DNA of 64,000 bases from an uncultured virus (IMG/VR IMGVR_UViG_3300029305_011999) (IMGVR_UViG_3300029305_011999), one strand, 5' to 3'; counted from the first letter of the stretch, positions 39,545 to 57,540 are shown. The notes: a model not told the origin generated them from the sequence alone. Numbers and translations: made by a program.

Positions 39545-40165
39545 TTATAAGGCTTTAATAACGTGCTTCGCTACACCTTGTACAACAAGCTCTCTCACAC
39601 GAATCACTTTATTACGATACCTCCGTTTGTTTTCAAACTGCAACAGAGCGTAACCGGATTCCTCGTCAATTCCAGCAAAAGTCTTGAGCGTGTTTTCGTT
39701 CTTTTCATCCAGTGCAACTACAATATCTCCAACAGATGCGACTTGTTGTTTTTTGATGACAATAAGGTCTCCTTCGTCTATCCCTGCATCAACCATTGAA
39801 TCACCAACAGCCTTGAGAATATAAAATTCACCGCTGCCGAAGATTGATTCGGGGAGATTGACATATTCCTCGACATATTCCTCTTCTGCTTCAGGATCAC
39901 CGCAATGGATGCTTCCTACTATAGGGGCAGAAAAGTAGCCCGATGTACACTTATCGATTCGGGGCGTTTCGATTGTGTGTCCATCGTAGGAAATCATGCC
40001 TCGCTCATTCATTTCGACCAGGTAGCGATAGGCCGTTGTTTTCGCAACACCGACTCCGTTGGCAACCTCGCTAACTGAAGGAGAATACAGTTTAGCGCGG
40101 TAGAAGTCGCTGACAAAGGCACAGATTTCTTTCATCAATTCAGGACTTTTGGATCTCATAGTCAT
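39545..40165 (-). CDS. LexA-like S24 autoproteolytic repressor
   Basis: SPSVSEVA wHTH, Cys-Gly cleavage site (IHCG), GDSM catalytic Ser, TLK catalytic Lys. Confidence 0.9.
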   Translation of the reverse strand: MTMRSKSPELMKEICAFVSDFYRAKLYSPSVSEVANGVGVAKTTAYRYLVEMNERGMISYDGHTIETPRIDKCTSGYFSAPIVGSIHCGDPEAEEEYVEEYVNLPESIFGSGEFYILKAVGDSMVDAGIDEGDLIVIKKQQVASVGDIVVALDEKNENTLKTFAGIDEESGYALLQFENKRRYRNKVIRVRELVVQGVAKHVIKAL

Positions 40166-40412: not shown

Positions 40413-40441
40413 TTGAAATCCGACAGAAAATGTGATATACT
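40413..40441 (+). promoter_or_regulatory. Sigma-A promoter for xre-WYL
   Basis: TTGAAA-17 bp-TATACT with TG extension. Confidence 0.7.
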
Positions 40442-40503
40442 GTATTTTGTATTCGTATATCCGCACTGACGGGGTGCAATATACATCGCATAGGAGGATT
40501 AAA

Positions 40504-40707
40504 ATGACTGTCAAGTATGATAAGCTGTGGACTTTAATGAAGCAGAACAAGATGAAAAAAAGCGAATTAGCCAAGGCTGCAGAGATATCTCAATACGCAA
40601 TGACAAAGTTAAATAAAAACCAACCCGTGCCTATGGATATCATGTTAAGACTTTGTAAGATATTCCACTGTGACATTGGAGACTTGATGGAAGTCATCGA
40701 AGACTAA
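40504..40707 (+). CDS. Xre/Cro-like HTH regulator (HTH_26)
   Basis: VKYDKLW...KSELAKAAEIS...CDIGDLME; AGGAGG RBS. Confidence 0.9.
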   Translation: MTVKYDKLWTLMKQNKMKKSELAKAAEISQYAMTKLNKNQPVPMDIMLRLCKIFHCDIGDLMEVIED

Positions 40708-40742: not shown

Positions 40743-41723
40743 ATGGATAACGAAGCAAAGTTAAGGCCATTATACCTTGCTAAAATACTTTATGAGCAAA
40801 CCGATGAGGACCATTATTTAACGACCGCTCAACTGATGCAAATTCTTGAAGAGCGTTACGGAATTAAGTCCCATCGTCAAACCATAAAGGCTGAAATAGA
40901 ATTATTGCGTCAGTTTGGCCTTGAGATTGAAGAGGTCAAATCAACGCAGAACAGATATAACGTTTTCGGCCGCAAGTTTGATTTGCCGGAGTTGAAGCTT
41001 TTGATTGACGCTGTTGAATCGTCAAAGTTCATCACGCAATCGAAAAGCAAAGAACTGGTTAGCAAACTGATCACACTCACGAGTGAACCTTTGGCTGTTT
41101 CAATCAAAAGAAATGTTACCTGCGAAGGACGCATCAAGCCGGACAACGAGAAAATCTACTTCATAGTTGATGCCATCAACCAGGCAATCAATGAAAACAA
41201 GAAGATATCGTTCCACTACTTCCATTACAACGTGCGAAAAGAAAAAAAACTCAAGCACAATGGAGAGCCGTATACAATCACCCCTCTCCATTTGATATGG
41301 AACGGTGACTACTACTATCTTGTAGGTGTTTACGATTACAAGCAACGCCTCGGTAGTTTTAGAGTTGATAGAATTGCGAAATGTCCGACCATTTTGAAAG
41401 AGGAAGGAACTCCTCCACCAAACGGGTTTGACATCAACGACTATGTCAATACGACATTCCGTATGTATAACAGCAAACACGAGGAAGTTGAGCTTATCTG
41501 CGATAACGATGTTATGGATGCAATCATCGACCGCTTTGGAGAAGATGTTACTACATACGCAAACGATATGAAATCCTTCCGTGTTGTAGCCGATGTAGCT
41601 GTGAGTCATATATTCTATAGCTGGGTATTTGGCTTCGGCGGGAAGGTAAAGATTAAAGGTCCAGAAAACATAAAAGAAAAGTACACCGAGATGTTGCGGT
41701 CAGCAATCAGTGCAATCGAGTAA
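40743..41723 (+). CDS. WYL-domain transcriptional regulator (wHTH-WYL-WCX)
   Basis: N-terminal wHTH; ITPLHLIWNGDYYYLVG, SFRVDRI; C-terminal FYSWVFGFGGKVKIKGP. Confidence 0.92.
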   Translation: MDNEAKLRPLYLAKILYEQTDEDHYLTTAQLMQILEERYGIKSHRQTIKAEIELLRQFGLEIEEVKSTQNRYNVFGRKFDLPELKLLIDAVESSKFITQSKSKELVSKLITLTSEPLAVSIKRNVTCEGRIKPDNEKIYFIVDAINQAINENKKISFHYFHYNVRKEKKLKHNGEPYTITPLHLIWNGDYYYLVGVYDYKQRLGSFRVDRIAKCPTILKEEGTPPPNGFDINDYVNTTFRMYNSKHEEVELICDNDVMDAIIDRFGEDVTTYANDMKSFRVVADVAVSHIFYSWVFGFGGKVKIKGPENIKEKYTEMLRSAISAIE

Positions 41724-41818: not shown

Positions 41819-43339
41819 ATGGCTGAAGAAACTGTGCAGGTCGGTAAATATACACTTGAATCCCTAACTACGGGTATGTACTCCGACCCTAAAATTGTTT
41901 ATAGAGAGTATATCCAGAACAGCGTGGACTCCCTGGAAAACGCTGTTTCTGTTGGTTTGATAGAACCGCAAAGTATGCGGATTGATATTATTGTCAACGC
42001 CGAGGAATCTTTTATCTCTATCAAGGACAACGGAACCGGTATTCCTGCTGCCGATGCAGCAAAGACACTTATGAACGTTGGCAGCTCAAAGAAGCGGAAC
42101 TCTAATAATAGAGGTTTCCGCGGAATCGGTCGTCTTGGTGGTATGAGCTATTGTGACACCCTTGTTTTTACAACGTCTGCCGAGCACGAAAAAGTAAAAA
42201 CCGTTGTTACATTTGATTGCAAGAGGTTGAGACATCTTCTCGTTCCTGGCAAATATGAGGATATGAGCTTATCTGCTGTCCTTGAAGAAATAACCACTAT
42301 AGATACACTTCCAGAAAAAGAAGAAAAGCACTATCTTTGTGTTGAAATGAAAGACGTTAATGGCTTTTCTGACTTGCTGGATATTGATGCTGCTAAGAGC
42401 TACATATCGCAGGTTGCACCGCTTCCGTATCACTCAAGACATTTTATTTATACTTCCCAGCTCAAAGAGTATCTTACAAGCAACGGCTATTCTGTTGAGG
42501 AGTTCCCGATATTTGTTGGTGAAGATGATGCAGACTTAGAGCCTGTGTACAAACCGAACAAGAGCAGATTTAGGTCTGACAGAGCAAAAAGAACCGCCGA
42601 TGAAATCACAAGTATGTCGTACTTTGATATTACAATCGACGGAGAGTTGTATGCACTTGGTTGGTACGGAAACTGTGGATGGTACGGCTTCTTGTCAGAT
42701 AAAGAGCTGTCTGGCTTCCGTGTAAGGAAAGGTAATATCCTTATCGGTGATAGCAAGACAATGAATGTCATTTTCAAAGAAGCTCGTTTCAACGGGTGGA
42801 CACAAGGTGAAATTTTCATTGTAACAGACAAGCTCATACCTAACGCTCGTAGAGATGATTTTGAACAGAACGATGCTTACTACAAGCTGATTCAAGCATT
42901 GAGTGATGGCGTTGGCTTGGAAATTGCTCGTACTATCAGAGAGGCATCCCTAACGAGAAATAATCCGAACTCCAAGGCGTTGCGTGAGGTGGAAAAGAAG
43001 CTCGCAGAGGCTTCCATGGCGGTTTCTGAAGGCTTCAATTCAACGGTGGATAAGGAAAAACTCATTACTACTTTAACGGATACCGCCGCTTCGCTTGCGG
43101 GGTTAAAGGTTGGCGATGACCTTTCTGCGAAAAAGCAGGAACTTCAAGAAAAGGTTGAAACAGCTATTGAAGAAGTTACCGAAAGCAAAAACTTTAAGAT
43201 AAATCAAATCAACTCCGGTATTGATAAAAAGAGTAAGCAAGTCCTAAAGGTTGTAAGCGACATCCTTTCAAGAAAGCTCGCCAAGGTGCTTGTGGATGAA
43301 ATCATTGAGGACATTGTATCGGAGCTAAATAGAAAGTAG
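41819..43339 (+). CDS. GHKL (Hsp90/MORC-like) ATPase, copy 1
   Basis: REYIQNSVD, DNGTGI, GFRGIGRL; transducer region RVRKGNILIG, LIPNARRDDFE; helical C-terminus. Confidence 0.88.
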   Translation: MAEETVQVGKYTLESLTTGMYSDPKIVYREYIQNSVDSLENAVSVGLIEPQSMRIDIIVNAEESFISIKDNGTGIPAADAAKTLMNVGSSKKRNSNNRGFRGIGRLGGMSYCDTLVFTTSAEHEKVKTVVTFDCKRLRHLLVPGKYEDMSLSAVLEEITTIDTLPEKEEKHYLCVEMKDVNGFSDLLDIDAAKSYISQVAPLPYHSRHFIYTSQLKEYLTSNGYSVEEFPIFVGEDDADLEPVYKPNKSRFRSDRAKRTADEITSMSYFDITIDGELYALGWYGNCGWYGFLSDKELSGFRVRKGNILIGDSKTMNVIFKEARFNGWTQGEIFIVTDKLIPNARRDDFEQNDAYYKLIQALSDGVGLEIARTIREASLTRNNPNSKALREVEKKLAEASMAVSEGFNSTVDKEKLITTLTDTAASLAGLKVGDDLSAKKQELQEKVETAIEEVTESKNFKINQINSGIDKKSKQVLKVVSDILSRKLAKVLVDEIIEDIVSELNRK

Positions 43340-43346
43340 GTCTATT

Positions 43347-45314
43347 ATGGAAATTCTCCCTTCTGAATATCAAAGCATAGAACTTTCGAGATACGAGAAA
43401 ATGTTTGTGCGCCACGCTATTTCCAATGATAGTTATGGCTTTCTTTTGCTGAAAGTAAATCCGACGATGATTGAAAACGAAAGTATGAATGTTGCGATTA
43501 CTTCCAGAGGGGTAGTATTTTTCAAGTTCTTTGAGGATTTTTCAGATTCTTCTCTCTTTGGGACAACGATGCAGGCGTATGCCCAATTCGTGTATCCTAC
43601 CGCACAGAAAATCATCGCTGAAAAGCTGCTTGGAAACAAATCCATTTCCGAAAATGGCACGACTCTTAAATTCCCCATCAACATTGTCCACGTATTCCCC
43701 AGTCTCAAAAGGGCTGATATTGAAAAGTTGAATTTGGCTGCTATTACAGATTTCGTAAAGAAGCAATGTCTTTTTGCAGAAGAATTTTCTGAACTGAGAC
43801 AGGGCTTTGGAAGCGTAATGGACAGATTGCTGGATAATTCTCTTTTGCCTGTGTCCGCAACACCGATGCAGATTTCAGATATGAATGTAAACTCCGTTAT
43901 GCAGAGAATCGCACCGGAGTATGTTACCGTCCGTGTCGCTTGTGTTGCTAACGCAGAAACGACTCCCGGAGTTGATAGCGAACTTCTTGTGGTCGATGAA
44001 AATGACGTTGTTGTAAGAGCCTTCCGATTGGATAAGGAACAAATCAATATTGTCAATCGTATCAGTAAGGATGACCCTAACCAGTTGATTTTGGCTTGTG
44101 CCGGTTCGGGTAAGAGTGTTCTCCTCATATCCAAGTGTTTTAAGGCTGCACAGATGAACCCCAATAAGAAGTTCTTAATAACCTGCCGAAACGAGAACTT
44201 ACATTCCTTGTACACTTGGTTCATCGACCGTGCCGGTCTCCGTGAGAAAAATGTGGAGTGTATGACATTCCATACCCTTTGCAAGAAACTCCTTGAAAAG
44301 AACGGCTTTATCGCCAGATATGGAGACTTCGATGGGTGGGTTGCTTCTGCGATTGATAAATTGAACCAAGGCAAAATCCAGGAGCGTTACTACGGTATTT
44401 TCATTGATGAAGTTCAAGCCTTTGAGCCAGAGTGGTATAAATTCTGCTTTAATATGCTTGAAAACAAGGACACAAAAGACCACATCTTTGTTATCTGCGG
44501 CGATAAGACCCAGCGTTTGGATAAGTTGAAAAAGCGTGGTCAAGCTCCTTGGCAGGTTGGCGAAGGCTATCCGAGTTATAGAGGCGGTAATAAGAACATT
44601 CGCATTGAAAAGAATTACCGCAACTGTATCGAAATCAACGAATACATAAACAGATATGTCTCCAATGCCAAGCAATATCTATATGATATTCAAGAGGATT
44701 ACGAGATTGACCCCGATATGTTCCTACGAGGACAAGCTGTTTTCCACGGCGAAGGAGTGAAATATATTCAGTTGCCTATTAAAAAGGCAAGTTGCGAAAT
44801 TGATACCATTATTCAAGCCATCAACAAGATACACGACGAGAACGAAATCCCGTATGATGAAATCGCCGTAATTATGTATCAAGGGAAGTACAGGAAAAAA
44901 ATCACAGGGTGGCTTGATAAGCAATATTATCTGCAACAGTCATTAGAAACGCGATTGCTTGCAGAGGACATCCCAAGCTGTCGCCTGTTTTCAACTGAGG
45001 CAGGTTGGCAAGACCACTTTGGAGAAACTGGTGGTGTACGACTCATAAAATTCCAATCAACACTTGGATTGGATTTCCGTGCCGCTATAATTTGTGGTTT
45101 GGTTCCTTTAGGGGAATATGACCAAATAAAGAATCCAAACTGGGACTCATTAAGGCAGGATGAAGATAAATATAATAACGCCATTGCCGCAACACAAAGT
45201 GCTGTTCAAAATCTCTATGTCGCTTGCACCAGAGCAAAGGAGATGTTATATATCATTGCTCCAGAAACGGAAAACGAATCAGTATTTATGAAAATGTTAA
45301 AAAATTCAATCTAA
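43347..45314 (+). CDS. SF1 (UvrD-like) helicase with long N-terminal domain
   Basis: ACAGSGKS, IFIDEVQ, GDKTQ, NYRN, GLDF, LYVACTRA. Confidence 0.88.
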   Translation: MEILPSEYQSIELSRYEKMFVRHAISNDSYGFLLLKVNPTMIENESMNVAITSRGVVFFKFFEDFSDSSLFGTTMQAYAQFVYPTAQKIIAEKLLGNKSISENGTTLKFPINIVHVFPSLKRADIEKLNLAAITDFVKKQCLFAEEFSELRQGFGSVMDRLLDNSLLPVSATPMQISDMNVNSVMQRIAPEYVTVRVACVANAETTPGVDSELLVVDENDVVVRAFRLDKEQINIVNRISKDDPNQLILACAGSGKSVLLISKCFKAAQMNPNKKFLITCRNENLHSLYTWFIDRAGLREKNVECMTFHTLCKKLLEKNGFIARYGDFDGWVASAIDKLNQGKIQERYYGIFIDEVQAFEPEWYKFCFNMLENKDTKDHIFVICGDKTQRLDKLKKRGQAPWQVGEGYPSYRGGNKNIRIEKNYRNCIEINEYINRYVSNAKQYLYDIQEDYEIDPDMFLRGQAVFHGEGVKYIQLPIKKASCEIDTIIQAINKIHDENEIPYDEIAVIMYQGKYRKKITGWLDKQYYLQQSLETRLLAEDIPSCRLFSTEAGWQDHFGETGGVRLIKFQSTLGLDFRAAIICGLVPLGEYDQIKNPNWDSLRQDEDKYNNAIAATQSAVQNLYVACTRAKEMLYIIAPETENESVFMKMLKNSI

Positions 45315-45332
45315 CAAGAAAGGTAGGCAGTT

Positions 45333-46958
45333 ATGGAACTCAAAGAAAATATAACAAAATTCACACATATGAGTATGCCTTCCTGGGGAGTAGGAACCTA
45401 TATAGGTTCTGAAGGGGATTACATTACAATTGATTTTGAAAATGTTGGTGTTAAGAAGTTTGGAAAAAATAGCATTAATACTATGTTAAAAGTTTTGGAT
45501 GACCCAAATACTCAGAAGCAAGCAACTACGCAACCCTCTACTGTTTATGTTCCGGTCAGCACACAAACCGGGTCCCTTATTCAGTATGACGGAGAAGAGG
45601 GCGGTATTGCGGGAAAAAATATAATAGAAGCGTTTGAAGGCAATGACTCTGTCATCTTTAACGAAACGTATATCATCATCGGTGAGCATACAGAAGCGTT
45701 GAAAATCCACGCTATGTACGACCTCACGATTATGGGGGATGTTACGGTTCAAGAATGTGTCATCAACGGTTCATTGACCATAATAGGCACCGCGCGTATT
45801 GCTAATTTAACTTGTTATAATGGGTTTATTTGCAAAGGAGATTTGTATTCTGACAAAATATATGTTGGTGGTGACATTATAGTTGACTCTATCGTATGTA
45901 ATGAATTGATTTGCGATAGCAATGTCACCATTCAGACAACCGCAAACATTAATCATACCGCAAAAATTGGAAAGAATATGGTAGCTTGCGAGGGCATTAT
46001 GGGTGCGGGTAAATTTTCCGCAACAAACGCTATTGCCAACGAATATTTTGAGTTTGACGGAGATTATGAGGGTAAAATACTTGAATTAGAGACGGATAAT
46101 ATCATCAGCGATTCTGCCCCTGTAAAAGTCGTGGCCGTGGAGACTATTGAAGAAATTATCAACCTGGCGAACCAAAAGCTCGTAGAAGAATATGGCAAAT
46201 GTCCTTCCTTAGACGAAGAAGCAATTATTGAGCATCTGCGTAATCTTGGCGCTATCGAAAGTGAGGAACTTCGAAACCTTCCGATAATTGAACCGTTGTT
46301 TTCAAGGCTTACCGACCTCTCCTATCAAGATAAAATAGAAACCATCGAAGAGTACCTAACCGTTCTTGTGGCACAGAGAGTTTTGCCGAGCGAAGTGTTC
46401 TCGTATGAGTCCATTGACCACATCGGTAAATTGTTTCTTCCGAAAGTGCAGAACGAAATGGAAGAATTATCTTTTGAGCCGACGTCCATTGGACAGTTTG
46501 CTAATGTTCTTTCTATGGCTGTACGGTTTGAAGAGGATCTCTCTCCAGATTGGGAATTGCTGATGGATAAAATATTTGAATCTGTCGGTCTCAAATATTC
46601 TACGGTTAGCTCTATGATTGGCAGAAACAAGCACAAAAAATCTGCAGAACCAGTAGTTGATGATGGATCTGAAGTGAAAATTGTAAGCGCTGATGAGCAA
46701 CAAGAACTTGCACCAGTCGTTTCTCGCATAAAAAAAGCTGATTTCCTTGCGAAGAAACTCAGCCATACTGGGAAGAAGTTTGGTTTAACGGATGTTGAGC
46801 TTGAACGCTTGGCAACTATTAAAATTCGTACATTTGACGACTTGGCGAAAGCCTCTGATGCTACCTTGACAAAGGTGTTTGGCAAAAAGTCTTTCTTGGC
46901 AAGTCATTTGATACAAACAAGAGATAAGATTATCGAAAGATTGGCGGATATGGAATAA
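45333..46958 (+). CDS. Unknown multidomain protein (Tudor-like N-terminus, beta-helix repeats, HhH/alphaCTD-like C-terminus)
   Basis: 541-aa ORF tightly inside the operon; domain guesses made by eye. Confidence 0.6.
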   Translation: MELKENITKFTHMSMPSWGVGTYIGSEGDYITIDFENVGVKKFGKNSINTMLKVLDDPNTQKQATTQPSTVYVPVSTQTGSLIQYDGEEGGIAGKNIIEAFEGNDSVIFNETYIIIGEHTEALKIHAMYDLTIMGDVTVQECVINGSLTIIGTARIANLTCYNGFICKGDLYSDKIYVGGDIIVDSIVCNELICDSNVTIQTTANINHTAKIGKNMVACEGIMGAGKFSATNAIANEYFEFDGDYEGKILELETDNIISDSAPVKVVAVETIEEIINLANQKLVEEYGKCPSLDEEAIIEHLRNLGAIESEELRNLPIIEPLFSRLTDLSYQDKIETIEEYLTVLVAQRVLPSEVFSYESIDHIGKLFLPKVQNEMEELSFEPTSIGQFANVLSMAVRFEEDLSPDWELLMDKIFESVGLKYSTVSSMIGRNKHKKSAEPVVDDGSEVKIVSADEQQELAPVVSRIKKADFLAKKLSHTGKKFGLTDVELERLATIKIRTFDDLAKASDATLTKVFGKKSFLASHLIQTRDKIIERLADME

Positions 46959-46982
46959 CTAACCGCAAGTGAGGTGAATAAA

Positions 46983-49900
46983 ATGGCAAATGTTAAAAGC
47001 ACAGCCCGTGAATTGCTGGCCAAAGAAATACTGCGGGGTTTCCAGGGCAAAATAACTGGCGATAACGCTGACTTCATTGTGAGCGAAAATCCAGAAAATC
47101 GTTATTTTGTCGGTAAACTTTTGCCTGTGAACGATTCCCAAACATCGTCTTGGGGGTCTGATGTTTTCATCGAATCCATTGGCTCGGATTTCTATATCGC
47201 AAAAGATGAAATCGAGACAGCTCAGCTTGCTGTCCATCCAAAGGGTGACTTTTATTACAGAGCATACCCCACCCTGGAACAGCAAAGAGCAGCTATGCTC
47301 AAAAAGGCAAACGAACTGTTTGAAACGAGCTTTACAAACTTCGATGAGATCATCGAAAGATATACGGAAGACCCTTCCGCTTTCACAAAAGTAAAAGAAA
47401 AACTCGTTCCAGTATATAAGAAAGTTCAGTTGCATCGCAGCGACTTTACTCTCATCTTTACACTGAGCGAGTTGCTTCGTGGCAATCCGCAGTACGGTTA
47501 TGCCGATGCAAGCCACGAACAAAACAGGCAGCTTGAGCAATTTCTTAACGACCTCCAGAGCTTGATTTGGGAGGACGAGAATTGCTATACCCTTGAACTC
47601 TATGAAAAGACGACAATCAAGGATTTGCTGACGGAAGATGACTATAAGAAATTCATAAAGAAAAATCAGAAACAAGGCACTCCGATTCGTCAAAATTGGA
47701 ATGTCTATATTGACATTACCATCAAACTTATTAAGGATAGATATTTGGTTTCCGTCGCCCTGGTCAATGGTTCGCAGGTTCAATCAAATGGTGTAACCCA
47801 CAAATCCAACAAGAAATCGGATGATAAGCCCACGATTGAAACGCTCTTTAATTCTGGCATGGAAATAGAACTTGTGGGAGCCTCTTTTTCACCGATAGAG
47901 CTGGATTTCTTTGCTGATGATTACAAGTACAACAGTTGCCAAAAGGCTGTTGGTAATAACTGCTCTGTTGAGTACCACGAAGAAACGAACACCATTACAA
48001 CAAATCATCTTCCTACTTTCGTCCAGAAGCGATTGCTCACTAATGATGAACTGGCGGTTTCATTTCAATCTTTGATTGATGCTCCGGTTGCGACACTAAA
48101 GGACATCCACCGGAAGATGCTCGCAGAGCACCGTAAATGGGAACGCAAATTCGAAGAAAAGAAACCTACTCTTTCTCCTGTCGGCATCAAAAATATGCAG
48201 GAAGAAATTGACGAGTTTGCACGAGAAATTCGTCGTTTTGAGTTTGGTATAGAGGTCATCAACGACTATCCGATTATTATGAAAAGTTTCGTGAATATGA
48301 ATCGGACTTTCTTGAAAACTTCCAAAAAGTACAGCACTTGGAGATTGTTCCAGATTGTATTTATCGTTTCTCTCGTACCGGATATTGCTGCGTGTGATGA
48401 AGATGTACTGCTTGACTCGCAAAAGGCTCAGACCACACTCAACGAAGTATCGCTTCTGTATTTCCCTACGGGCGGTGGTAAAACTGAAGCCTTTCTTGGT
48501 GTGCTAATTTTTAATCTATTCTTTGATAGATACCGTGGCAAGGAATGTGGTGTAACCGCTATCCTCAGATACCCGTTAAGACTTCTCTCGGTACAGCAGG
48601 TTCAGCGTTTGGCTAATGTTTTGGCACAAGCTGAGCTGATAAGACGTGCTGATATAGCTATTTCACGAACAGAAGAATTTTCTCTCGGCTATTTCGTTGG
48701 TGATGCAAACACCCCCAACAAAATCGAGAAGAAAGATGTAATCAAATATCGTACCCGTTCGCAAGAAGCGATGGACGAGGAACGTATTATTGATATTTGT
48801 CCGTTCTGCGGCAGGCAAACGGTTCACTTGAAGTTTGATGAGGACTCCTATCGCTTGGTTCACTATTGTGACAATGCGGAATGTCCGTCGAATGGCGTTC
48901 TTCCTATTTATATGGTTGACTACGAAATCTATCGTTATCTGCCATCTGCAATTATTAGCACAGTTGATAAGCTCGCCATTTTAGGAAACAATCCGAGCTT
49001 TAGAAATATCCTTTCCGGTGCAACGCATAGATGCCCGAAACACGGTTTTACCAGTACGACAAAGTGTATGGTAGATAGAGAGTTCTGCAACGTGGATGTC
49101 TCTGATTTTGAAGAAATCGAGATGTATGACCCTGCTCCTACTCTGTTTATTCAAGACGAGTTGCATTTGATTCGTGAAAGCTTGGGTACATACGCTTCGC
49201 ATTATGAGTCCTTCATCGACTATTTTGTAAAGAACGTCTCTCCGTCTCGCAGACCCATTAAAACAATCGGTGCAACGGCAACAATTTCCTCCTATGCAAC
49301 GCAGATTTCTCAGTTGTATAGTAAAGACCCGATTCGCTTTCCTTGCGCCTCTCCCGACTTGAAACGCAACTTCTATTCTTACATTGAAGAAGATGATACA
49401 CAGCGTTTGATTATGGGTTATGCTCCGTATGGAAAAGCAATTATTAACTCCGTTGTTTACTCGTTGAAGTATATGCGTGAGGTAGTATTTGATTATGTAC
49501 AGAACCCCGAAAAGGTTTTGGCTATCCCCGGTATTGGCATTGATACCGTTGAGGATGCGCTTGAAATACTGAAGGACTACTGGATTTTTCTTGAATACAA
49601 CAATGTAAAAAGAGACGGCAACAACGTTGAAGGCGCTCTTGAAACTCCTATCAACGTACAGCTACGTCAAGCAGGGATAACTCCGTTCAACACGAGAAAA
49701 ATGACCGGTGACGAGACCTTCCAAGATGTTCGTGAAGTGCTTTCCAAAGTCGAGACGAATGACGATGTTTTCAATGGTGTTAACCTTATTGTAGCAACAT
49801 CAATGATTTCTCACGGTGTTGACGCAGACCGCTTTAATATTATGTTCTTCTATGGAATGCCCGGTAATACCGCTGAATATATCCAGGCATACAGTAGAAC

Positions 49901-50420
49901 CGGCAGACGTCACTCCAGTATCGTTATTGATATTATGCGTCCCTCCAGAGAGACCGACCAGAGCTATCTGAAGAACTTCGTTAATTTCCACGAGTTTAAG
50001 GACATTATGGTTGAGTCTGTCCCTATCAACCGTTGGGCTACCAAAGCCATTGATTGCACTTTGCCGGGTATCTTTACAGGGTTGCTCTTAACCAAGTATG
50101 ACCCCGAACTTCAATACTCCTGCGGTTCTCAGTTCTTTATGAACAACATAAAGAAAGCGATTTCCGGAGGCTATTTGGATGTTGCTACTGTGACCAACGA
50201 ATTGAAAATGGCTTACGGGTGTACCATAGCCGGACAAGTAAACGAGATAGGCAATCAGTATAAAGCAAAAATTGAAGCCTTCGTTGAAGATGTCTTTGAA
50301 AGAATCGTCGATAAGAACTGGGAGCGAGAAAATATCTTCGCCGGATTTGAACTTATGGGCTATCATATTATGAATAGCTTACGAGATACCGACACTCAGT
50401 TGATTATCGAACTTGAATAA
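46983..50420 (+). CDS. DrmA-like SF2 helicase
   Basis: WRLFQ, FPTGGGKTEA, RYPLRLLS.QQ, CPFC, STVDK, QDELHL, ATAT, ATSMISHGVD, EYIQAYSRTGR; GAGGTG SD before the ATG at 46983. Confidence 0.88.
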   Translation: MANVKSTARELLAKEILRGFQGKITGDNADFIVSENPENRYFVGKLLPVNDSQTSSWGSDVFIESIGSDFYIAKDEIETAQLAVHPKGDFYYRAYPTLEQQRAAMLKKANELFETSFTNFDEIIERYTEDPSAFTKVKEKLVPVYKKVQLHRSDFTLIFTLSELLRGNPQYGYADASHEQNRQLEQFLNDLQSLIWEDENCYTLELYEKTTIKDLLTEDDYKKFIKKNQKQGTPIRQNWNVYIDITIKLIKDRYLVSVALVNGSQVQSNGVTHKSNKKSDDKPTIETLFNSGMEIELVGASFSPIELDFFADDYKYNSCQKAVGNNCSVEYHEETNTITTNHLPTFVQKRLLTNDELAVSFQSLIDAPVATLKDIHRKMLAEHRKWERKFEEKKPTLSPVGIKNMQEEIDEFAREIRRFEFGIEVINDYPIIMKSFVNMNRTFLKTSKKYSTWRLFQIVFIVSLVPDIAACDEDVLLDSQKAQTTLNEVSLLYFPTGGGKTEAFLGVLIFNLFFDRYRGKECGVTAILRYPLRLLSVQQVQRLANVLAQAELIRRADIAISRTEEFSLGYFVGDANTPNKIEKKDVIKYRTRSQEAMDEERIIDICPFCGRQTVHLKFDEDSYRLVHYCDNAECPSNGVLPIYMVDYEIYRYLPSAIISTVDKLAILGNNPSFRNILSGATHRCPKHGFTSTTKCMVDREFCNVDVSDFEEIEMYDPAPTLFIQDELHLIRESLGTYASHYESFIDYFVKNVSPSRRPIKTIGATATISSYATQISQLYSKDPIRFPCASPDLKRNFYSYIEEDDTQRLIMGYAPYGKAIINSVVYSLKYMREVVFDYVQNPEKVLAIPGIGIDTVEDALEILKDYWIFLEYNNVKRDGNNVEGALETPINVQLRQAGITPFNTRKMTGDETFQDVREVLSKVETNDDVFNGVNLIVATSMISHGVDADRFNIMFFYGMPGNTAEYIQAYSRTGRRHSSIVIDIMRPSRETDQSYLKNFVNFHEFKDIMVESVPINRWATKAIDCTLPGIFTGLLLTKYDPELQYSCGSQFFMNNIKKAISGGYLDVATVTNELKMAYGCTIAGQVNEIGNQYKAKIEAFVEDVFERIVDKNWERENIFAGFELMGYHIMNSLRDTDTQLIIELE

Positions 50421-50433
50421 GGAGGTGAACAGA

Positions 50434-52314
50434 ATGAGTTCTAAACAGCAGATGAAACGAGGAAAAAACCAATCCTTGTATAAGTACCTTCCCGAAACCT
50501 GGATAGATTTCTCTGTTCGTGGCAAAGAGCGTAAACAGTACATCGCAAAGGTTTTGAGATGGAATAGCGAGAAGCTCGATGGCATCAACGCCAAGCGCCT
50601 TATCAGAACTGTAAATGCTTCTGTTCGCTCTTTTGAAAACCAATGTCCTACTCCGGGTCCAATAAAGCCTACAGTTGGATTTAGCGCAGAATTAAATAAG
50701 GATAACTGTGACGTTTTGACTCCAAAGGCTTCCGAAGAAGAAAGAGGTATTGTCGCTCAGATTAGTCCTCTGACTTTCTACTGCAAGCTCTGTAACAAGG
50801 TGTATCAGTTCAGCAGCGAGGAAGAATATCAAAAACGTCGCTATTGCACAAATCCCGAATGTCACCACGCAGAGCTGGCTCAATTCCGTCAGATTTATTT
50901 CTGCAAATGCGGTTATGCGACAGACAGGCATAATCCTCGATGTCCGGAGCACGGCTATCAGTATGTAAAGTGGTATGGCAACTTTGATTTTGTCTGCACG
51001 AAATGTAAAAGACCTATCCCGATGCAGGTAAAATGTCCTGTGTGTGGTGATATGCTTAGACCTAAAGTTGCTCTTGACCCTGCACAGTTTTTCGTATTCA
51101 GTTTGAGTCTTATCGACTTGATTGACGAAAAGTTGGAGAACTTTATCTCTGAAACAGAATACGGACCCTATATTACCTTCGCATATTGGCTCGGATTGAT
51201 AAGCAAAGAGGAACTTAATGAAATCATCAAGAACGGAATTGTATCTGACCCCGATGCGTACCAAAAGGTATATGACCAGATGTATACGGTAATGTTTGCG
51301 GCGTTCAAAAACGAGACCGCCGCAGCTACAGCCGCTAAAACAGCAGCCGACCAACAATGCGGTAATCGCTTCAACGATATTGTCAACGAGTTGAAAACCA
51401 AGATTTTCACTACCGAAGGCGATTTGTCCAGTATTGCGGAGCGCATCCTTGAGTACGATTTGGTTACACGACTTGATGATGTTTCGGATTTGGCTTCTGC
51501 GGTTGACGTTGCCCGTTTACTTAATACTAACGCCAATCCAGAACAGTATGCTCAAATCGCAGAGCGTTTCGGAATTAAGAGTGCCAGAGTATGTGATAGA
51601 ATCCCCTTTGTTTCCTGCTCCTATGGATACACGAGAGTGGAATCCGAATGGAAAGAGGGCGTACAGCTCCACGCACTCAAAGAAGAAAAGCCTGGGCGTA
51701 AAAACATTTACGCTACCAAGCTGAATACCGAAGGCGTACTGTTTGAGTTCGATAGAAAAAAGATAATTGAATGGCTGCTTGCCAATCAATTTATCACAAC
51801 AGAAGAAGCTCCGAACCTGGAGTCCGAGGAAGAAATCAAAATTTGGTTCTTGAATAACATCAAGCCAAGTCTTATTCATCCTTTCTCCACTATTGATGAG
51901 ACCGCAAGCAAGGAAACTTACTATGTGTATCGGCTCATTCATTCGCTTTCACACCTGCTTATCCGTGCTGCCGCTGATATTGGTGGTTTGGGTAAGGATT
52001 CATTGTCGGAATACATTTTCCCCGGCGTTCCTGCAGTTCTGATTTATTGTCAAAACTCGCAAGGTTTCAACTTGGGTTCTTTGTTTAACACCTTTGAAGC
52101 ATACTTCGATAAGTGGATGAACAAAGCATACACAAGCGCACAGAAGTGTATTTTTGACCCAATTTGTATAGAACGGCAAAAAGCCTGTACGGGATGTTTG
52201 TTTGTGAACGAGGTCTCGTGCCAACATTTCAATAAGGATTTGGACAGAGCCTTGGTTGTAGGTCACGTTGACCGTGAAACACAACGAAAGACAACGGGCT
52301 TTTGGGAGGATTAA
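50434..52314 (+). CDS. DrmB-like DUF1998 (MrfA-type Zn-binding) protein
   Basis: Multiple CxxC; HSLSHLLIR, SLSEYIF, CIFDPIC...ACTGC...EVSC..FN..LDR; directly after the DrmA-like gene with AAGGAGGTG SD. Confidence 0.85.
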   Translation: MSSKQQMKRGKNQSLYKYLPETWIDFSVRGKERKQYIAKVLRWNSEKLDGINAKRLIRTVNASVRSFENQCPTPGPIKPTVGFSAELNKDNCDVLTPKASEEERGIVAQISPLTFYCKLCNKVYQFSSEEEYQKRRYCTNPECHHAELAQFRQIYFCKCGYATDRHNPRCPEHGYQYVKWYGNFDFVCTKCKRPIPMQVKCPVCGDMLRPKVALDPAQFFVFSLSLIDLIDEKLENFISETEYGPYITFAYWLGLISKEELNEIIKNGIVSDPDAYQKVYDQMYTVMFAAFKNETAAATAAKTAADQQCGNRFNDIVNELKTKIFTTEGDLSSIAERILEYDLVTRLDDVSDLASAVDVARLLNTNANPEQYAQIAERFGIKSARVCDRIPFVSCSYGYTRVESEWKEGVQLHALKEEKPGRKNIYATKLNTEGVLFEFDRKKIIEWLLANQFITTEEAPNLESEEEIKIWFLNNIKPSLIHPFSTIDETASKETYYVYRLIHSLSHLLIRAAADIGGLGKDSLSEYIFPGVPAVLIYCQNSQGFNLGSLFNTFEAYFDKWMNKAYTSAQKCIFDPICIERQKACTGCLFVNEVSCQHFNKDLDRALVVGHVDRETQRKTTGFWED

Positions 52315-52317
52315 GTT

Positions 52318-53982
52318 ATGGCAGTAATGCACCCGGTTGATATTGAAAATTATGATTATACGCCGACAGAAAAAGAGATGTACTATGCTTTGAAGGAGCA
52401 GCTTCCCGATAAGTACCAAGTATTCTATTCTGTCCGCTGGTTTGAGACGGTTGATAATAAGAGAATTGACAGCGAGAGCGATTTTCTGATTTTTGACCCG
52501 TCATTTGGCTTCATCACCATTGAAGTAAAGGGCGGAACCGGGATTACTGTCGATGACGGAAAGTGGACACTTATTGAGGATTACAGCCCCACAAACTCCA
52601 GTAGCAGAGAGTTAAAATGCAGCCCATACGAGCAGGCAGAAAAAAGTATGCGGCATTTTAGAAACTACTTTGTGTCTGAGTTCAATCAGAACTATAATGG
52701 CGTTTATGGCTTTGCTGTAGCTTTCCCTCGCTATGCTATAAGCTCACAGTTGGCGCAGGATGCTCCACCCGAAACAACAATCGACTTAAACGATATGCTG
52801 TCTCTGCGTGAGAAAATCAATCAAATCTTCCACTACTGGAAGAACAAACGGAATATAACCATTCCTTTTTCCGCTGAACAGCGCAACCGCTTCTTGACCG
52901 CAATCAATAAGCAGATTTCTATGTCTGCTGCCGCAGGTGCTTTGATTCCTATTAAGGAAAAGGAGTTTTCAAAGATAGATTTCGTTCAAGACTCGATTCT
53001 CGATTGCTTGCACAATTACCGGCAGGCACAGATTGTCGGAGGAGCTGGAACGGGCAAGACATTCATCGGCATTAAGAAGGCTGTTCGTGACACTTTGGAT
53101 AATAAGCGAGTATTGTTTACCTGCTGCAATGAGGAGCTTGCCGCCTTCGTAAAATCTAAGTTGGCGCAGTATCCTAAGATTGACGTGCTTACATATGCTG
53201 AGCTGATGAAAAAACTTTTAGGTGATGTGTACGACAATCTCCCGGCAAACCCGAACGGTAACAAAAGTTGCTTTGAATATATGGACCAAGTTCCTGTTGA
53301 ACAGAAATACGACTCCATCATTGTTGATGAGGCGCAGGATTTTGATATTGATATGGGCTTGGCTGTGAGAAGTCTTTTGGTCGATGATAGTACATCGTCG
53401 CTTTATGTGTTCTACGATAAGAACCAAAATGTTTTTGAAATGGATTTTGAAAATGCGTTCGCCATTGATGCCCCGCCGTATGTGTTGCGGTATAACATCC
53501 GAAACACGGGCAGCATCTATCAATGCGCCGTTGAACGGACGAACCTGGGACACGATACTGTAGCAAACAACATTGTCGGCGTTCATCCAGAAATCCATAA
53601 TTATTCTAAACCGTCGCAAGCGGTGAAGGCACTTAGCTTGATTGTTAATCGCCTGGTGCAAAAAGAATTTGTGCCAGCCGAATCCATAGTCATAGTTTCC
53701 GACACATCCTATGAAAACTCCATTCTTGCAGGGGAGGAACGTATAGGAGCTTATAACCTTGTGTTTAAGCACTATAAGGATGTCGCTGAAGATGAAATAT
53801 GCTTCAAAACTGCAGAAGAATTTAAGGGACTGGAATCCAACGTTGTAATTTATTTGACACACGAATTTACTAATCTTCCGTCCTCGACAACAGATAATAG
53901 AAAGGAATATGTTGCTATCACTCGTGCAAGGTACTATCTCTATGTGCTGAACACGAAGTGCAAGGCAGCGATTGGTGATTGA
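52318..53982 (+). CDS. NERD nuclease + SF1 helicase fusion
   Basis: ESDFLIF...IEVKGG, SPYEQA; GGAGTGKT, IIVDEAQD, FKGLE, YVAITRAR. Confidence 0.9.
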   Translation: MAVMHPVDIENYDYTPTEKEMYYALKEQLPDKYQVFYSVRWFETVDNKRIDSESDFLIFDPSFGFITIEVKGGTGITVDDGKWTLIEDYSPTNSSSRELKCSPYEQAEKSMRHFRNYFVSEFNQNYNGVYGFAVAFPRYAISSQLAQDAPPETTIDLNDMLSLREKINQIFHYWKNKRNITIPFSAEQRNRFLTAINKQISMSAAAGALIPIKEKEFSKIDFVQDSILDCLHNYRQAQIVGGAGTGKTFIGIKKAVRDTLDNKRVLFTCCNEELAAFVKSKLAQYPKIDVLTYAELMKKLLGDVYDNLPANPNGNKSCFEYMDQVPVEQKYDSIIVDEAQDFDIDMGLAVRSLLVDDSTSSLYVFYDKNQNVFEMDFENAFAIDAPPYVLRYNIRNTGSIYQCAVERTNLGHDTVANNIVGVHPEIHNYSKPSQAVKALSLIVNRLVQKEFVPAESIVIVSDTSYENSILAGEERIGAYNLVFKHYKDVAEDEICFKTAEEFKGLESNVVIYLTHEFTNLPSSTTDNRKEYVAITRARYYLYVLNTKCKAAIGD

Positions 53983-53983
53983 T

Positions 53984-56035
53984 ATGGCAAATATTTTACT
54001 TATCGAACCGGATTATAAATGTAAGCAGCCCCCGCTTGGGTTGATGAAAATATCGTTCTTCCACAAGAACATTCTGCACGATTATGTACGATTTACTAAG
54101 GGCAAACTCCCTGCAGCTCTTTCGGGGACAAAGTGGGACCGTGTATATGTAACATCTCTCTTTACCTTTGAATGGAAAGCAACGATTGAAGCTATTGAGT
54201 ACGCAAAGACCTTGGTTGACTCCATTGACAAAATCGTGGTTGGCGGTATTGCTGCTACAATGTTGCCCGACCAAATGTATGAGGAAACTGGTATCCGTCC
54301 GGTGTGCGGTCTTTTGAACGAGCCTGGAAAACTTGGTCTGCCCGGAGACGAGTGTATAGACCAGATAACGCCCGACTACTCTATGCTTGATGATGTCGAT
54401 TATGTTTATCCTTTCAACGATGCTTACTTTTTAAGCGCAACCAAAGGATGTGGCAACAAGTGTGGTTTTTGTGCTGTTCAAACCTTGGAGCCTAAGTTCA
54501 TCCCTTACATTGACATTAAGGACAGAATCAAAGCCATTGACGAGCAGTTCGGTCCCAAAAAGGACCTTATCCTTATGGATAACAATGTGCTTCGTTCGCC
54601 TCGCTTCAATGATATTATCGACGATATTATTGCCGCAGGTTTTGGCAAAGGTGCGACATATAAGAACCCCCGCACCGGCAAGACCGTGCAAAGGTACGTT
54701 GACTTTAACCAGGGACTTGATGCGCTGTTCTTGACCGAAGAAAAGGCAAAACGCCTTGGTGAAATTGCGCTTCGACCTGCACGAGTTGCTTTCGACCATA
54801 TTGAGGACAGGGACATTTACGAAAGAGCACTCCGTTTGTGTGCGAAGAACGGTGTTACTGAACTCTCCAACTATGTCCTCTATAATAGCGAAGATTTCGG
54901 CGGTAAGGGCAAAAAGTATCACGCTGATACTCCTGCAGATTTGTATGACCGAATGAAAATCACGCTGGACTTGCTTGATGAACTTAATGAAGAATATGGA
55001 CAGGAGCAGCGTATTGCAGCATTTTCGTTCCCAATGAGATATATTCCTTTGTCTGCTCACGAGCGTGGTTATGTAGGCTCTCAATGGAACGCCAAGTTCT
55101 TACGAGCAGTTCAGAGAATGCTCGTTCCCACACAAGGAAAGGGCGTTTGTAGCCGTAGCTTTTTTGAAGCGGACTTTGGCAAGAGTGCGGATGATTTCGT
55201 TCGTTATTTGAGTATGCCGGAGAAGCTGATTGCTGCCAGAGGTAAAATCAGCCCCACTTCCAGAGGTAAGTCCGGTGAAACCGAGGAACAGTTTATTCTC
55301 AGAAAGGCAAGCTGGGAGCGTGAACAAAAGAAAATCAAAATGTGGAACTCCCTGTATGCTCAGCTCGGCACCGAGAAAGATGATTTCATCAATCTGATTG
55401 GAGATAACGAATACCTCCCCGAAAAGGTTTTAGGTATTTCCTCCACCATACAGAGAAAGCTCTACATTCTCTATTTGACTACGCCCAGATTGGTTTCCTT
55501 CTTGGGTATGGTTGATAAAAACTCCCCGACCTACTCTATGGTCAAGGAGTTTATTGAGGTTGAGTGTCCCGAACTTTATATGGACGTTCTTGACCTTGTA
55601 TCTGAAAGCGAAGTTCAGCAAAATTATGTGTTTAAGAATTTTGTCGATTTCTTTGGACGCAAAGGTGTTCTTGATTTGCTGACCCGCTTGGAAAAAATAG
55701 ATTTTGCAGCCGATAAGCAGTTGACTAAATGGGATGTGCTCGCTAAGAAGGAAGGCATAGGTTACATCGACTTTGAGTTGATTCGTGTATATCGTCGCTT
55801 TGTGGATTTGGACGTTTTGACCGCTAAAGAGCACAAGGATGCAAAGAGACACATTATGGCTATGTCGATGACAGAACTTGCTTCTATCCTTGCGGAAAAC
55901 ATCGAAAAATTTGAGTCATTACTTCTTTCTGCTATAGACAATGAAAAAGGGCAAGCCGTACTGAAGAAGGTTACAAAGACAATCACAAACAACATTCAGT
56001 TCAAACTTGCGAACTTTTTAGGAGAAGAAGAATAA
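53984..56035 (+). CDS. Radical SAM enzyme with B12-binding-like N-terminus and C-terminal extension
   Basis: ILLIEP...PPLGLMKIS, VGGIAAT, KGCGNKCGFC (CxxxCxxC), LMDNN, VDFNQGLD, FPMRY. Confidence 0.88.
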   Translation: MANILLIEPDYKCKQPPLGLMKISFFHKNILHDYVRFTKGKLPAALSGTKWDRVYVTSLFTFEWKATIEAIEYAKTLVDSIDKIVVGGIAATMLPDQMYEETGIRPVCGLLNEPGKLGLPGDECIDQITPDYSMLDDVDYVYPFNDAYFLSATKGCGNKCGFCAVQTLEPKFIPYIDIKDRIKAIDEQFGPKKDLILMDNNVLRSPRFNDIIDDIIAAGFGKGATYKNPRTGKTVQRYVDFNQGLDALFLTEEKAKRLGEIALRPARVAFDHIEDRDIYERALRLCAKNGVTELSNYVLYNSEDFGGKGKKYHADTPADLYDRMKITLDLLDELNEEYGQEQRIAAFSFPMRYIPLSAHERGYVGSQWNAKFLRAVQRMLVPTQGKGVCSRSFFEADFGKSADDFVRYLSMPEKLIAARGKISPTSRGKSGETEEQFILRKASWEREQKKIKMWNSLYAQLGTEKDDFINLIGDNEYLPEKVLGISSTIQRKLYILYLTTPRLVSFLGMVDKNSPTYSMVKEFIEVECPELYMDVLDLVSESEVQQNYVFKNFVDFFGRKGVLDLLTRLEKIDFAADKQLTKWDVLAKKEGIGYIDFELIRVYRRFVDLDVLTAKEHKDAKRHIMAMSMTELASILAENIEKFESLLLSAIDNEKGQAVLKKVTKTITNNIQFKLANFLGEEE

Positions 56036-57540
56036 TGAGCAGCATAATAATTGGCAAACACACATTGGAGTCGCTTACATCCGGTATGTATTCTGATTCC
56101 TATGTGGTGTTTAGGGAATATATTCAGAACAGCGTGGACTCAATCGACGAAGCTATTCGTGCCGGGGTATTGCTCCCTGGTGCAGAGCAGATTTCAGTTC
56201 GATTGGCACCAACAGAAAATCAAATTGTAATTTATGATAATGGTCTTGGCATCCCTACAGCCGATGCCGAGAAAACACTTATCAGTATTGGTAACTCTAA
56301 AAAGTCCTCGGAAAGCTCTCGTGGTTTCCGTGGAATTGGTCGCTTGTCAGCTCTTAGCTATTGCCAACAACTAACATTTACTACTTCATTCAAAGGCGAG
56401 GGTGTTGCTACAAAAATAGTTATTGATGCATCCAAACTGTCGGAAGTGCTGGCAGACGATACGAAAGCTGATGTTACCGTCATAGATGTGCTTGAAAGCG
56501 TGTACACCGTATCCACTTTTTCTGAACGTGAGGATTCACATTATTTCTCTGTTCAGTTGGACGGCGTTGATGTGAACTCTAAACTTCTTTCGTGTGCAGA
56601 TGTTGAGGATTATTTGACTCAGAACGCCCCTGCTCCTTACAGTCCGGAATTTGTTTGGGGCAAGGAAATAACAAAGCGCCTCCAGAAAGAGGGCTTGGAA
56701 ATAAGTGTGTATAACATCTCATTGGAGTATGGTACGAAAGTAAAACCCATCTACAAACCGTATAAAGATGAGTTTATCGTGGACAAGGGCAGAAACATAA
56801 CTGATGTCGTACAGGACATTCAAATAATCAAGATTCCGAACGAGAGTGCAAACCTTACTGCTATCGGATGGCTCGCAAAGACGAACTATATGGGTAGCAT
56901 TTACGAAAAAGCAGTAAAAGGAATACGTCTGCGCAAAGGCAACATTTTGATTGGCGACCATCAGACATTGAACGTTGTCTTCAAGGATGCTCGTTTCAAC
57001 GGTTGGTCTATCGGTGAAATTTTCGCATTCGATAAGCAGCTTATTCCAAATGCCAGAAGGGATAACTTTGAAAAGAACCCCGCATACTTCTCCCTTTTTG
57101 AGCAACTTATGACGATTGCTGCAGGGATTACCAAAGAAATCCGAACTGCTTCCTTAAAGAGAAATACGACCCTTTCAAATGCGCTTGAGCAGCTCAATGC
57201 TACAGCCCAGCAAGCGGCTATCGCATTGGATGAAGGTGTTACCGGCGCACAAAAGGGGCTTATCACAAAGAAGCTCAAAGAAGCACAAACTGCCGTTTCT
57301 AATTCCACGGCAAATAGTGACTCGGAGCAATACTGCCAAGATATTGCCTTTGCAGAGTTGGATATGTTGATTGGAAAATTCAAGGGCACAACGAAGTACA
57401 AAGCTCTTAACACTATCGACAATCTGACAAACACAGAAAAGAAAATCCTTGAAAGAGTAATTCAAATTGTTGATTCGTTGGAAATTGAAAGTGCAGACGC
57501 CGTAATTGAGGCAATCTTAAACGAATTTTCTAACAAATAA
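56035..57540 (+). CDS. GHKL (Hsp90/MORC-like) ATPase, copy 2
   Basis: REYIQNSVD, DNGLGI, GFRGIGRL, RLRKGNILIG, LIPNARRDNFE; TAATG overlap with the radical SAM gene. Confidence 0.88.
   Translation: MSSIIIGKHTLESLTSGMYSDSYVVFREYIQNSVDSIDEAIRAGVLLPGAEQISVRLAPTENQIVIYDNGLGIPTADAEKTLISIGNSKKSSESSRGFRGIGRLSALSYCQQLTFTTSFKGEGVATKIVIDASKLSEVLADDTKADVTVIDVLESVYTVSTFSEREDSHYFSVQLDGVDVNSKLLSCADVEDYLTQNAPAPYSPEFVWGKEITKRLQKEGLEISVYNISLEYGTKVKPIYKPYKDEFIVDKGRNITDVVQDIQIIKIPNESANLTAIGWLAKTNYMGSIYEKAVKGIRLRKGNILIGDHQTLNVVFKDARFNGWSIGEIFAFDKQLIPNARRDNFEKNPAYFSLFEQLMTIAAGITKEIRTASLKRNTTLSNALEQLNATAQQAAIALDEGVTGAQKGLITKKLKEAQTAVSNSTANSDSEQYCQDIAFAELDMLIGKFKGTTKYKALNTIDNLTNTEKKILERVIQIVDSLEIESADAVIEAILNEFSNK

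Follow-up and report, generated by a model that had tools for sequence, protein, structure and literature searches.

Bacterial defence systems of the DISARM, BREX, Dnd/Ssp, Dpd and MADS types mark self DNA with an enzyme that methylates it or that transfers sulfur or deazaguanine to it. DISARM itself reportedly exists in classes 1 and 2, described by Ofir et al. in 2018, that join DrmA-DrmB-DrmC to DrmMI or DrmMII and to DrmD or DrmE. Here we describe an eight-gene cassette (g1-g8, positions 41819-57540) in a 64,000-nt stretch from an uncultured virus (IMGVR_UViG_3300029305_011999; this whole stretch is referred to as the window), in which the DISARM sensor core is kept without a known marking enzyme and a radical S-adenosylmethionine (SAM) enzyme stands in its place, as it likewise does in Pbe-type and other systems. 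Based on gene content and comparison with related loci, we propose, as an evenly balanced judgement, that the cassette would be a DISARM-related, restriction-modification (R-M)-like defence system that uses radical SAM chemistry, in place of a methyltransferase, to write its self-mark.

The eight open reading frames (ORFs) of the cassette all lie on the plus strand, separated by 3-18 nt or overlapping by 1-11 nt depending on the choice of start codon (Table 1), as an initial annotation of this DNA had described, and family scans agree with the order that it had proposed: GHKL ATPase, superfamily 1 (SF1) helicase, unknown gene, superfamily 2 (SF2) helicase, DUF1998-like gene, NERD-SF1 helicase, radical SAM enzyme and a second GHKL ATPase. 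The DISARM-type pair of helicase and DUF1998 protein that it had recognized is confirmed by PADLOC and by the solved DrmAB complex (7s9v/7s9w), such that g4 matches DrmA (7s9v_A) with E=4e-52 and g5 matches DrmB (7s9v_B) with E=5.6e-8. Among the 14 ORFs of positions 40743-61665, and in the flanks of the scanned DrmAB-type loci, no member of the PLD family (DrmC), no DNA methyltransferase (DrmMI/DrmMII), and no DrmD (SNF2) or DrmE was found, which agrees with the earlier claim that all of these are missing.

Searching species genomes with g5 gave seven loci, three of them on short contigs that carry the same gene order in part and four on contigs of sufficient length (a Clostridia metagenome-assembled genome, Dysosmobacter, the cultured Gemmiger sp. 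An50, which holds L005, and Phascolarctobacterium). The four full loci (L001, L003, L005 and L006), which belong to different genera, carry all eight genes in the order of the window, with identities of 64-95%. Copies this close could, taken alone, represent one recently spread element, and for this reason distant loci were examined. From a metagenome scan with an alignment of g7, the best 80 of 570 relatives were inspected, and all ten co-linear loci with 10 kb of upstream sequence present the order SF1 helicase, a gene at the g3 position, DrmA, DrmB, NERD-SF1, radical SAM and GHKL; the 10-kb limit ends before the position of g1. In six of these (L057, L058, L064, L066, L073 and L115) the gene at the g3 position is ~21-31% identical and the rest of the cassette 36-66%, and the remaining four loci are closer, with higher identities. 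The viral contig L128 (IMG/VR record G406) repeats the order at 34-51% identity and, immediately 5' of its SF1 gene, encodes another GHKL that has 43% identity to g1. Both GHKL genes are found in seven loci (the window, L001, L003, L005, L006, G406 and L062). Since the same order recurs down to ~21-51% identity, the cassette is more than a product of chance; the co-conservation of all eight genes in distant loci also disposes of the chance mosaic that the initial annotation had named as a possible objection. Two further observations concern the state of individual copies: each gene of the DrmAB-type cassette in L064 is split into several ORFs, indicating a decayed copy or a poor assembly, and the nearest viral record (G001) is an 18.7-kb fragment without DrmA.

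The boundaries of the cassette are sharp, such that genes from g9 onward are not conserved and the flanks differ from locus to locus. The flanks of three genome loci contain, respectively, a helix-turn-helix (HTH) gene with a serine recombinase, a WYL gene with DUF6508 and an ImpB-type polymerase, and Mrr, and those of the scanned DrmAB-type loci contain transposases, recombinases, an ArdC-like gene, Tn7-like genes or unrelated genes. The cassette is a conserved, horizontally mobile system. Its constant association with mobile contexts (recombinases, transposases, the ArdC-like gene and prophages) would also be expected of a module that has no role in immunity and that serves mobile-element or prophage maintenance, or DNA repair or processing, for example by aiding replication or by keeping out rival elements without acting on phage. 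We regard this explanation as very unlikely, since all recognizable parts derive from families of defence systems (DrmA/DrmB, NERD-helicase, GajB-like and WYL) and the neighbours in other loci are the defence genes Mrr, AbiE, ABC-3C and type I R-M.

The identification of g7 as a radical SAM enzyme is secure. Its residues C160, C164 and C167 form a CX3CX2C motif that is invariant in 42/42 aligned sequences, and the Pfam radical SAM profile (PF04055), which gives g7 20.2 bits and so falls under the 29.5 cutoff, passes in the homologues L031 (30.8 bits) and L033 (33.2 bits). No N-terminal cysteine that could serve a second cluster is conserved in the 42-sequence alignment. An AlphaFold (AF2) model computed from the 42-row alignment, which was used instead of the single sequence (predicted local distance difference test, pLDDT, of 36), reached a pLDDT of 94.1 and a predicted template modelling score of 0.88, and shows a Rossmann (B12-binding-like) domain at the N-terminus, followed by the radical SAM barrel and, at the C-terminus, a helical extension of ~260 aa. 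The top Foldseek matches of this model are TsrM, OxsB, AprD4, MgmA and MiaB (E=4e-9 to 7e-7, with probability 1.00 for TsrM, OxsB, MiaB and others), and its first ~430 residues align with TsrM, OxsB, AprD4, MgmA, TokK, CysS, MiaB and RimO at E=4e-9 to 1e-4 and 10-16% identity; the C-terminal extension gave no clear Foldseek match. A B12-binding profile of Pfam gives homologue L031 28.4 bits (cutoff 32.1), and phrog_9298 matches g7 at 115 bits. The family is large, with 1204 relatives at E<=1e-3 and 226 at E<=1e-30 among 1.84 billion cluster representatives, and its profile barely finds solved enzymes among PDB sequences (marginal matches, best E=0.02), which places it remote from any characterized enzyme. 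In summary, g7 has the Rossmann domain, barrel and CX3CX2C motif in common with cobalamin-type radical SAM enzymes and methylthiotransferases (TsrM, OxsB, MgmA, TokK, CysS, MiaB and RimO), and differs from them in its unique helical C-terminal extension and its defence-type genomic context. As far as a predicted fold can indicate, the closeness to cobalamin-type enzymes, several of which are methylases, would be consistent with a marking function.

The wider distribution of the g7 family reveals with which genes it associates. Relatives occur in 13 of 399 Clostridia-class genomes (two further genomes were left unscored), and among eight distant Clostridia loci none contains DrmAB, with a GHKL gene adjoining the radical SAM gene in five. 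When the ORFs of all loci were clustered, 16 of the best 80 metagenome relatives proved to be of the DrmAB type, 18 were accompanied by two ParB/PD-Lambda-5_A-like genes, a small gene and an SNF2 helicase, and 19 by PbeA (754 bits), PbeC (584 bits) and a small protein; the rest have a mad8-like gene with an unknown gene and a GHKL (2), a DndB/DpdB-like gene only (9), a GHKL only (8) or no recognizable partner (8). A GHKL gene adjoins the radical SAM gene in 34/80 of these loci, in 24/24 of those whose radical SAM protein has the long C-terminal extension (at least 620 aa) and in 0/19 of the Pbe type, in which an ABC ATPase takes its place. A tree of 47 GHKL rows unites the proteins at the g1 position in one clade (support 100/98; six rows, including L062) that is sister to the radical-SAM-adjoining GHKLs of long-form loci, a placement indicating that g1 stems from an old duplication. 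Among the radical-SAM-adjoining GHKLs, those of DrmAB-type and SNF2-type loci interleave with six changes, and it follows that the radical SAM-GHKL pair has swapped helicase partners repeatedly. The pair is an independently mobile module, and the g1 GHKL belongs to the helicase arm. The idea put forward in the initial annotation, that the radical SAM and GHKL proteins replace the methylation module, gains comparative support from the presence of the same family in PbeA/PbeC systems, where it may likewise take the place of such a module, and the parts of that annotation that could be checked were all borne out; the qualifications are that the pair moves on its own and that g1 is no part of it.

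Several loci merit description in their own right. The Pbe-type loci (L075-L077, L080, L084, L088, L091, L092, L107, L116 and others) are operons of PbeA, PbeC, small protein and radical SAM genes, often preceded by a gene for a ~1045-aa protein with a sigma-70 region 4 HTH. In L111, the radical SAM-GHKL pair lies directly 3' of the operon of a type I R-M system (HsdR, an HsdS-GIY-YIG fusion and HsdM), and a Schlafen/AlbA_2 protein and an HNH nuclease are also encoded there.

How would a cassette of this composition distinguish host DNA from incoming DNA? The recurrent partners of the g7 family are, by homology, the cores or regulators of DNA-modification-based defence systems, and no methylase or other obvious modifying enzyme besides the radical SAM protein was found in the recurrent-partner loci that were scanned. 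Because all recurrent partners are linked to modification and these loci yielded no other modifying enzyme, a DNA mark is the best reading of g7 function. We therefore picture two arms, a helicase-nuclease arm (g1-g6) and a marking arm (g7-g8). The radical SAM enzyme g7, aided by the g8 ATPase, would write a covalent mark on host DNA that stands in for the DISARM methyltransferase, DrmA-DrmB would, in the way suggested for DISARM, be loaded onto incoming DNA that lacks the mark, and the NERD-SF1 (g6) and UvrD-like (g2) helicases would degrade the unmarked DNA. Where it is present, the WYL protein would control expression.

Several points weigh against this proposal of a marked-self, DISARM-related system, and the first two of them would be accommodated by an account in which two or three independent systems (GHKL-UvrD, DrmAB-NERD and radical SAM-GHKL) travel together on defence islands without cooperating. 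Most of the 80 loci hold the radical SAM family without DrmAB, and in L062 the genes are split into two divergent units, with GHKL-SF1-x-DrmA-DrmB facing radical SAM-GHKL; the pair occurring without DrmAB and the divergent transcription mean that the two arms could work independently. The best 80 of 570 metagenome relatives are also a sample biased towards close relatives. The NCBIfam scores of the core proteins are low, with g4 reaching 377 bits for DrmAS (cutoff 950) and g5 reaching 94.6 bits for DrmB_fam (cutoff 240), and the Foldseek matches of g7 include enzymes acting on small molecules, peptides and tRNA. Finally, both the defence phenotype and the DNA modification are predictions drawn from comparison. 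For the account of non-cooperating systems specifically, a mixed neighbourhood of GHL ATPase, GajB, DrmA, DrmB and cytosine methylase that appears in the accessible part of a preprint (bioRxiv 10.64898/2026.09.30.754977) could be cited in addition. We nonetheless hold that account to be decidedly unlikely, since gene order and tight spacing hold to ~21-51% identity in ten co-linear metagenome loci and G406, the cassette boundaries are sharp, and the DrmB clade of g5 is found only with the cassette among the 399 Clostridia-class genomes (one close match; the other six matches are 27-38% identical over the C-terminus).

Viral relatives of g7 bear on the nature of its product. Neighbours were examined in 33 viral loci, drawn from the best 80 of at least 432 viral relatives, and a DNA methylase lies within two ORFs of the g7 relative in 6/33. 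Bacteroides phage BI-TP1 carries a short relative among methylase and PAPS-reductase genes, and Oscillospiraceae phage NatCom_21982 (L126, 3173-4297) encodes a 374-aa radical SAM protein next to a DNA methyltransferase gene, which is 25% identical to g7 over 190 aa and shares the family motifs. By comparison, relatives located near methylases would fit a role in protective modification. An alternative is that the cassette is indeed a defence system in which the radical SAM-GHKL pair is the effector or signal maker, producing a toxic or chain-terminating nucleotide in the manner of viperin or damaging DNA directly, and in which self and non-self are told apart by DrmAB sensing DNA ends or replication intermediates. 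Viperins are antiviral radical SAM enzymes that make chain-terminating nucleotides. The fold matches of g7 include the small-molecule enzymes OxsB and AprD4, and the cassette already contains a nuclease, so that several outputs are possible; the references of the same preprint, as far as the list is accessible, also include viperin as an antiviral enzyme (bioRxiv 10.64898/2026.09.30.754977). However, the fold of g7 is of the B12 type and not viperin-like, a location near DNA methylases, as the solitary short phage homologues have it, typifies protective modification rather than suicide effectors, and the g7 family occupies the modification-gene slot of Pbe-type systems as these are described in the available literature. 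An effector role is for these reasons considered unlikely.

Returning to the marking function, there is a substantial chance that the radical SAM module represents a new DNA-marking chemistry. We further hypothesize, tentatively and while leaning against so broad a statement being correct in full, that the g7 family may be a new class of DNA-modifying radical SAM enzymes that, with the assistance of an ATPase (GHKL, or ABC in the Pbe type), would place a covalent mark such as a methylated unactivated base or sugar carbon, that no fewer than four unrelated restriction cores (DrmAB, PbeA/PbeC, SNF2/ParB-like and mad8-like) would read this mark as self, and that the short solitary versions in phages would counterfeit it. 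If g7 marks DNA, this would be new chemistry for bacterial epigenetic immunity, and gut Firmicutes and their phages could be searched for a new natural modification. If g7 does not, the cassette would show how a DrmAB core can work without a modification module.

The helicase-nuclease arm is composed of recognizable enzymes and one protein of no known family. The two GHKL ATPases, g1 and g8, are 42% identical over 402 aa, and residues D68, G72, G97, G100 and G102 are invariant in 28 aligned GHKL sequences. In g2, a NERD+UvrD model of PADLOC matches residues 218-651 with 76.8 bits, and the translated sequence contains a Walker A motif (GSGKS). No family matched the N-terminal ~220 residues of g2 (43347-44000); BLAST aligns this region, below significance, with the NERD domain of g6, so that it may be a degenerate NERD domain that has lost its catalytic residues. 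The g6 protein matches the RTasNERD-Hel model of PADLOC at 237 bits, and its D...E-x-K motif and both Walker motifs (A, GGAGTGKT; B, VDEAQD) are conserved in 14/14 homologues, intact as required of the NERD nuclease that the initial annotation had put forward; g6 is a candidate effector. For g5, the true start is probably at 50434, since its homologues are 626 aa long. Profile scans of the Pfam/PADLOC type gave no significant family for g3, which evolves faster than any other gene of the cassette (64-70% identity, against 75-95% for the adjoining genes) and in which residues 91-240 and 481-541 are conserved and the N-terminus and linkers are variable. Its positional counterpart in L057 matches a FapA beta-solenoid (E=5e-7, below the cutoff), and the tail of g3, as read off its sequence, is a candidate helix-hairpin-helix-like element. 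One might speculate that g3 is a specificity or target-contact subunit.

Table 1 Features of the window that are discussed in the text
Feature	Coordinates	Strand	Basis
g1, GHKL (HATPase_c_3) ATPase of the helicase arm	41819..43339	+	Pfam 46.0 bits (cutoff 25)
g2, UvrD-like SF1 helicase	43347..45314	+	Pfam UvrD-helicase and UvrD_C
g3, no known family; beta-solenoid core, candidate C-terminal helix-hairpin-helix-like tail	45333..46958	+	
g4, DrmA-family SF2 helicase	46974..50420	+	PADLOC PDLC02576 578 bits, residues 73-1146
g5, DrmB-family (DUF1998-type) protein	50413..52314	+	PADLOC DrmB 196 bits
g6, NERD nuclease domain fused to SF1 helicase	52318..53982	+	Pfam NERD PF08378 40.1 bits (cutoff 22.1)
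g7, radical SAM enzyme	53972..56035	+	CX3CX2C motif and predicted fold; Pfam PF04055 below cutoff
g8, GHKL ATPase paired with radical SAM	56035..57540	+	Pfam HATPase_c_3 48.4 bits (cutoff 25)
g9, 606-aa acidic protein	57573-59393		
WYL-WCX transcription regulator	40743..41723	+	Pfam WYL 41.1 and WCX 30.8 bits (both above cutoff); PADLOC WYL 97.6 bits
Cro/C1-type HTH protein, 91 aa, directly before WYL gene	40432..40707	+	Pfam HTH_26 63.6 bits
Siphovirus-type prophage, complete-looking	249-40165	-	Phage gene content
Two tandem large serine recombinases	249-3105	-	Prophage
776-aa methylase and ParB-methylase	25351-28900	-	Prophage genes
S24-type repressor-like gene	39545-40165	-	Prophage

The cassette begins directly after the regulatory end of a prophage, on the opposite strand, and the GC content changes from ~0.47 to 0.42 near 38-40 kb. 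Besides the genes in Table 1, the prophage encodes endolysin/lysis, tail, head, terminase, primase, helicase, Sak4 and Gam functions. In NatCom_21982, the radical SAM gene occupies the spot at which the window prophage has its 776-aa methylase. In G406 (38.4 kb), the cassette, with ~45% identity, is located at one end of a phage genome and is followed by an ABC-3C system (AAA_23, MC2 and CTD6) and then by phage genes for replication, a methylase, terminase and portal. Taken together, the window prophage and the G406 phage genome indicate that the cassette has repeatedly been carried by prophages and other mobile elements.

The WYL regulator that had been placed in front of the cassette is indeed located 95 nt upstream of g1 in the window, and the arrangement does not extend to all loci: WYL homologues lie 3' of the cassette in L001 (67% identity) and L058 (58%), and no WYL gene was seen beside the cassette in L005 and L006. 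The WYL regulator is a facultative accessory of the cassette. The preceding HTH protein may be a switch regulator of the prophage or of the cassette, and its place in the system is uncertain. A promoter and terminator scan gave 40 promoter-like sites, with 39.7 expected. On the other side of the cassette, g9 starts 32 nt after g8 and is not kept beside the cassette elsewhere; its C-terminus has a weak match to a PriA 3'-DNA-binding-like domain (19 bits, below the cutoff).

Comparison of the cassette with described systems led to the rejection of several candidates. Gabija was rejected since g2 and g6 give partial GajB matches (<=45 bits) and there is no GajA (OLD-family nuclease). DRT was rejected because, for all the similarity of g6 to RTasNERD-Hel, the cassette has no reverse transcriptase. 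Mza was rejected with MzaB at 15 bits only, and MADS with MAD6 at 17 bits only (cutoff 460). Three defining genes being absent, canonical DISARM was rejected as well; the NCBIfam equivalog cutoffs were also missed. No named system matched the cassette in PADLOC-DB, NCBIfam or the literature, in line with the initial annotation, which had not recognized the architecture, and no published description of DrmAB with radical SAM, or of the g7 family in defence loci, was found in the full-text literature outside subscription journals and bioRxiv supplements.

Prokaryotic MORC and paraMORC GHKL proteins are said to have been placed in restriction-modification operons by Iyer, Abhiman and Aravind in 2008. 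Compared by description, those operons resemble the cassette in that a GHKL is encoded with helicases and nucleases in an R-M-like setting, and differ from it in that the cassette holds two GHKL paralogues, one of which is tied to the radical SAM gene. The 2008 study is cited in the discussion of the preprint on Tiamat, within its available text (bioRxiv 10.64898/2026.09.30.754977). The accessible part of that preprint also describes a 'Type III-C' Tiamat-like neighbourhood made up of a GHL-helicase fusion, GajB, DrmA, DrmB and a cytosine methylase, and WYL (BrxR-like) regulators in some Tiamat neighbourhoods (bioRxiv 10.64898/2026.09.30.754977). As described there, 'Type III-C' shares with the cassette a GHL/GHKL ATPase, a GajB-like UvrD helicase, DrmA and DrmB, but it has a cytosine methyltransferase and a GHL fused to a helicase, whereas the cassette has a radical SAM enzyme, two free-standing GHKLs and a NERD-SF1 protein. 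No Tiamat model was among the PADLOC matches of the cassette at E<=0.01, a result that includes no aimed family test of g1 and g8.

A second relative by analogy is the PbeABCD/CxC ABC-ATPase-DndE group, in which Pbe/CxC-ABC systems are coupled to phosphorothioation or cytosine methylases according to the available text of Aravind and colleagues (PMC10853773), a text that mentions radical SAM only in regard to DndC and not as a g7-like partner of Pbe. In our loci the g7 family directly follows the PbeA, PbeC and small-protein genes in the 19/80 loci noted above, and both systems, as far as the accessible description goes, would combine a restriction core with an exchangeable modification module. 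The cores differ, however, that of PbeABCD being the HKD-SF2 protein PbeA with an ABC ATPase and that of the cassette being DrmAB.

The closest named system is DISARM. On the evidence of its gene content, the cassette is best described as a predicted, unnamed, DISARM-like and R-M-like defence relative: homologues of DrmA and the adjoining DrmB are present, and both systems are multigene, helicase-based and located in mobile islands. Unlike DISARM, the cassette adds to this shared core two SF1 helicases, one of which carries a NERD domain, two GHKL ATPases, a radical SAM enzyme and a beta-solenoid protein.

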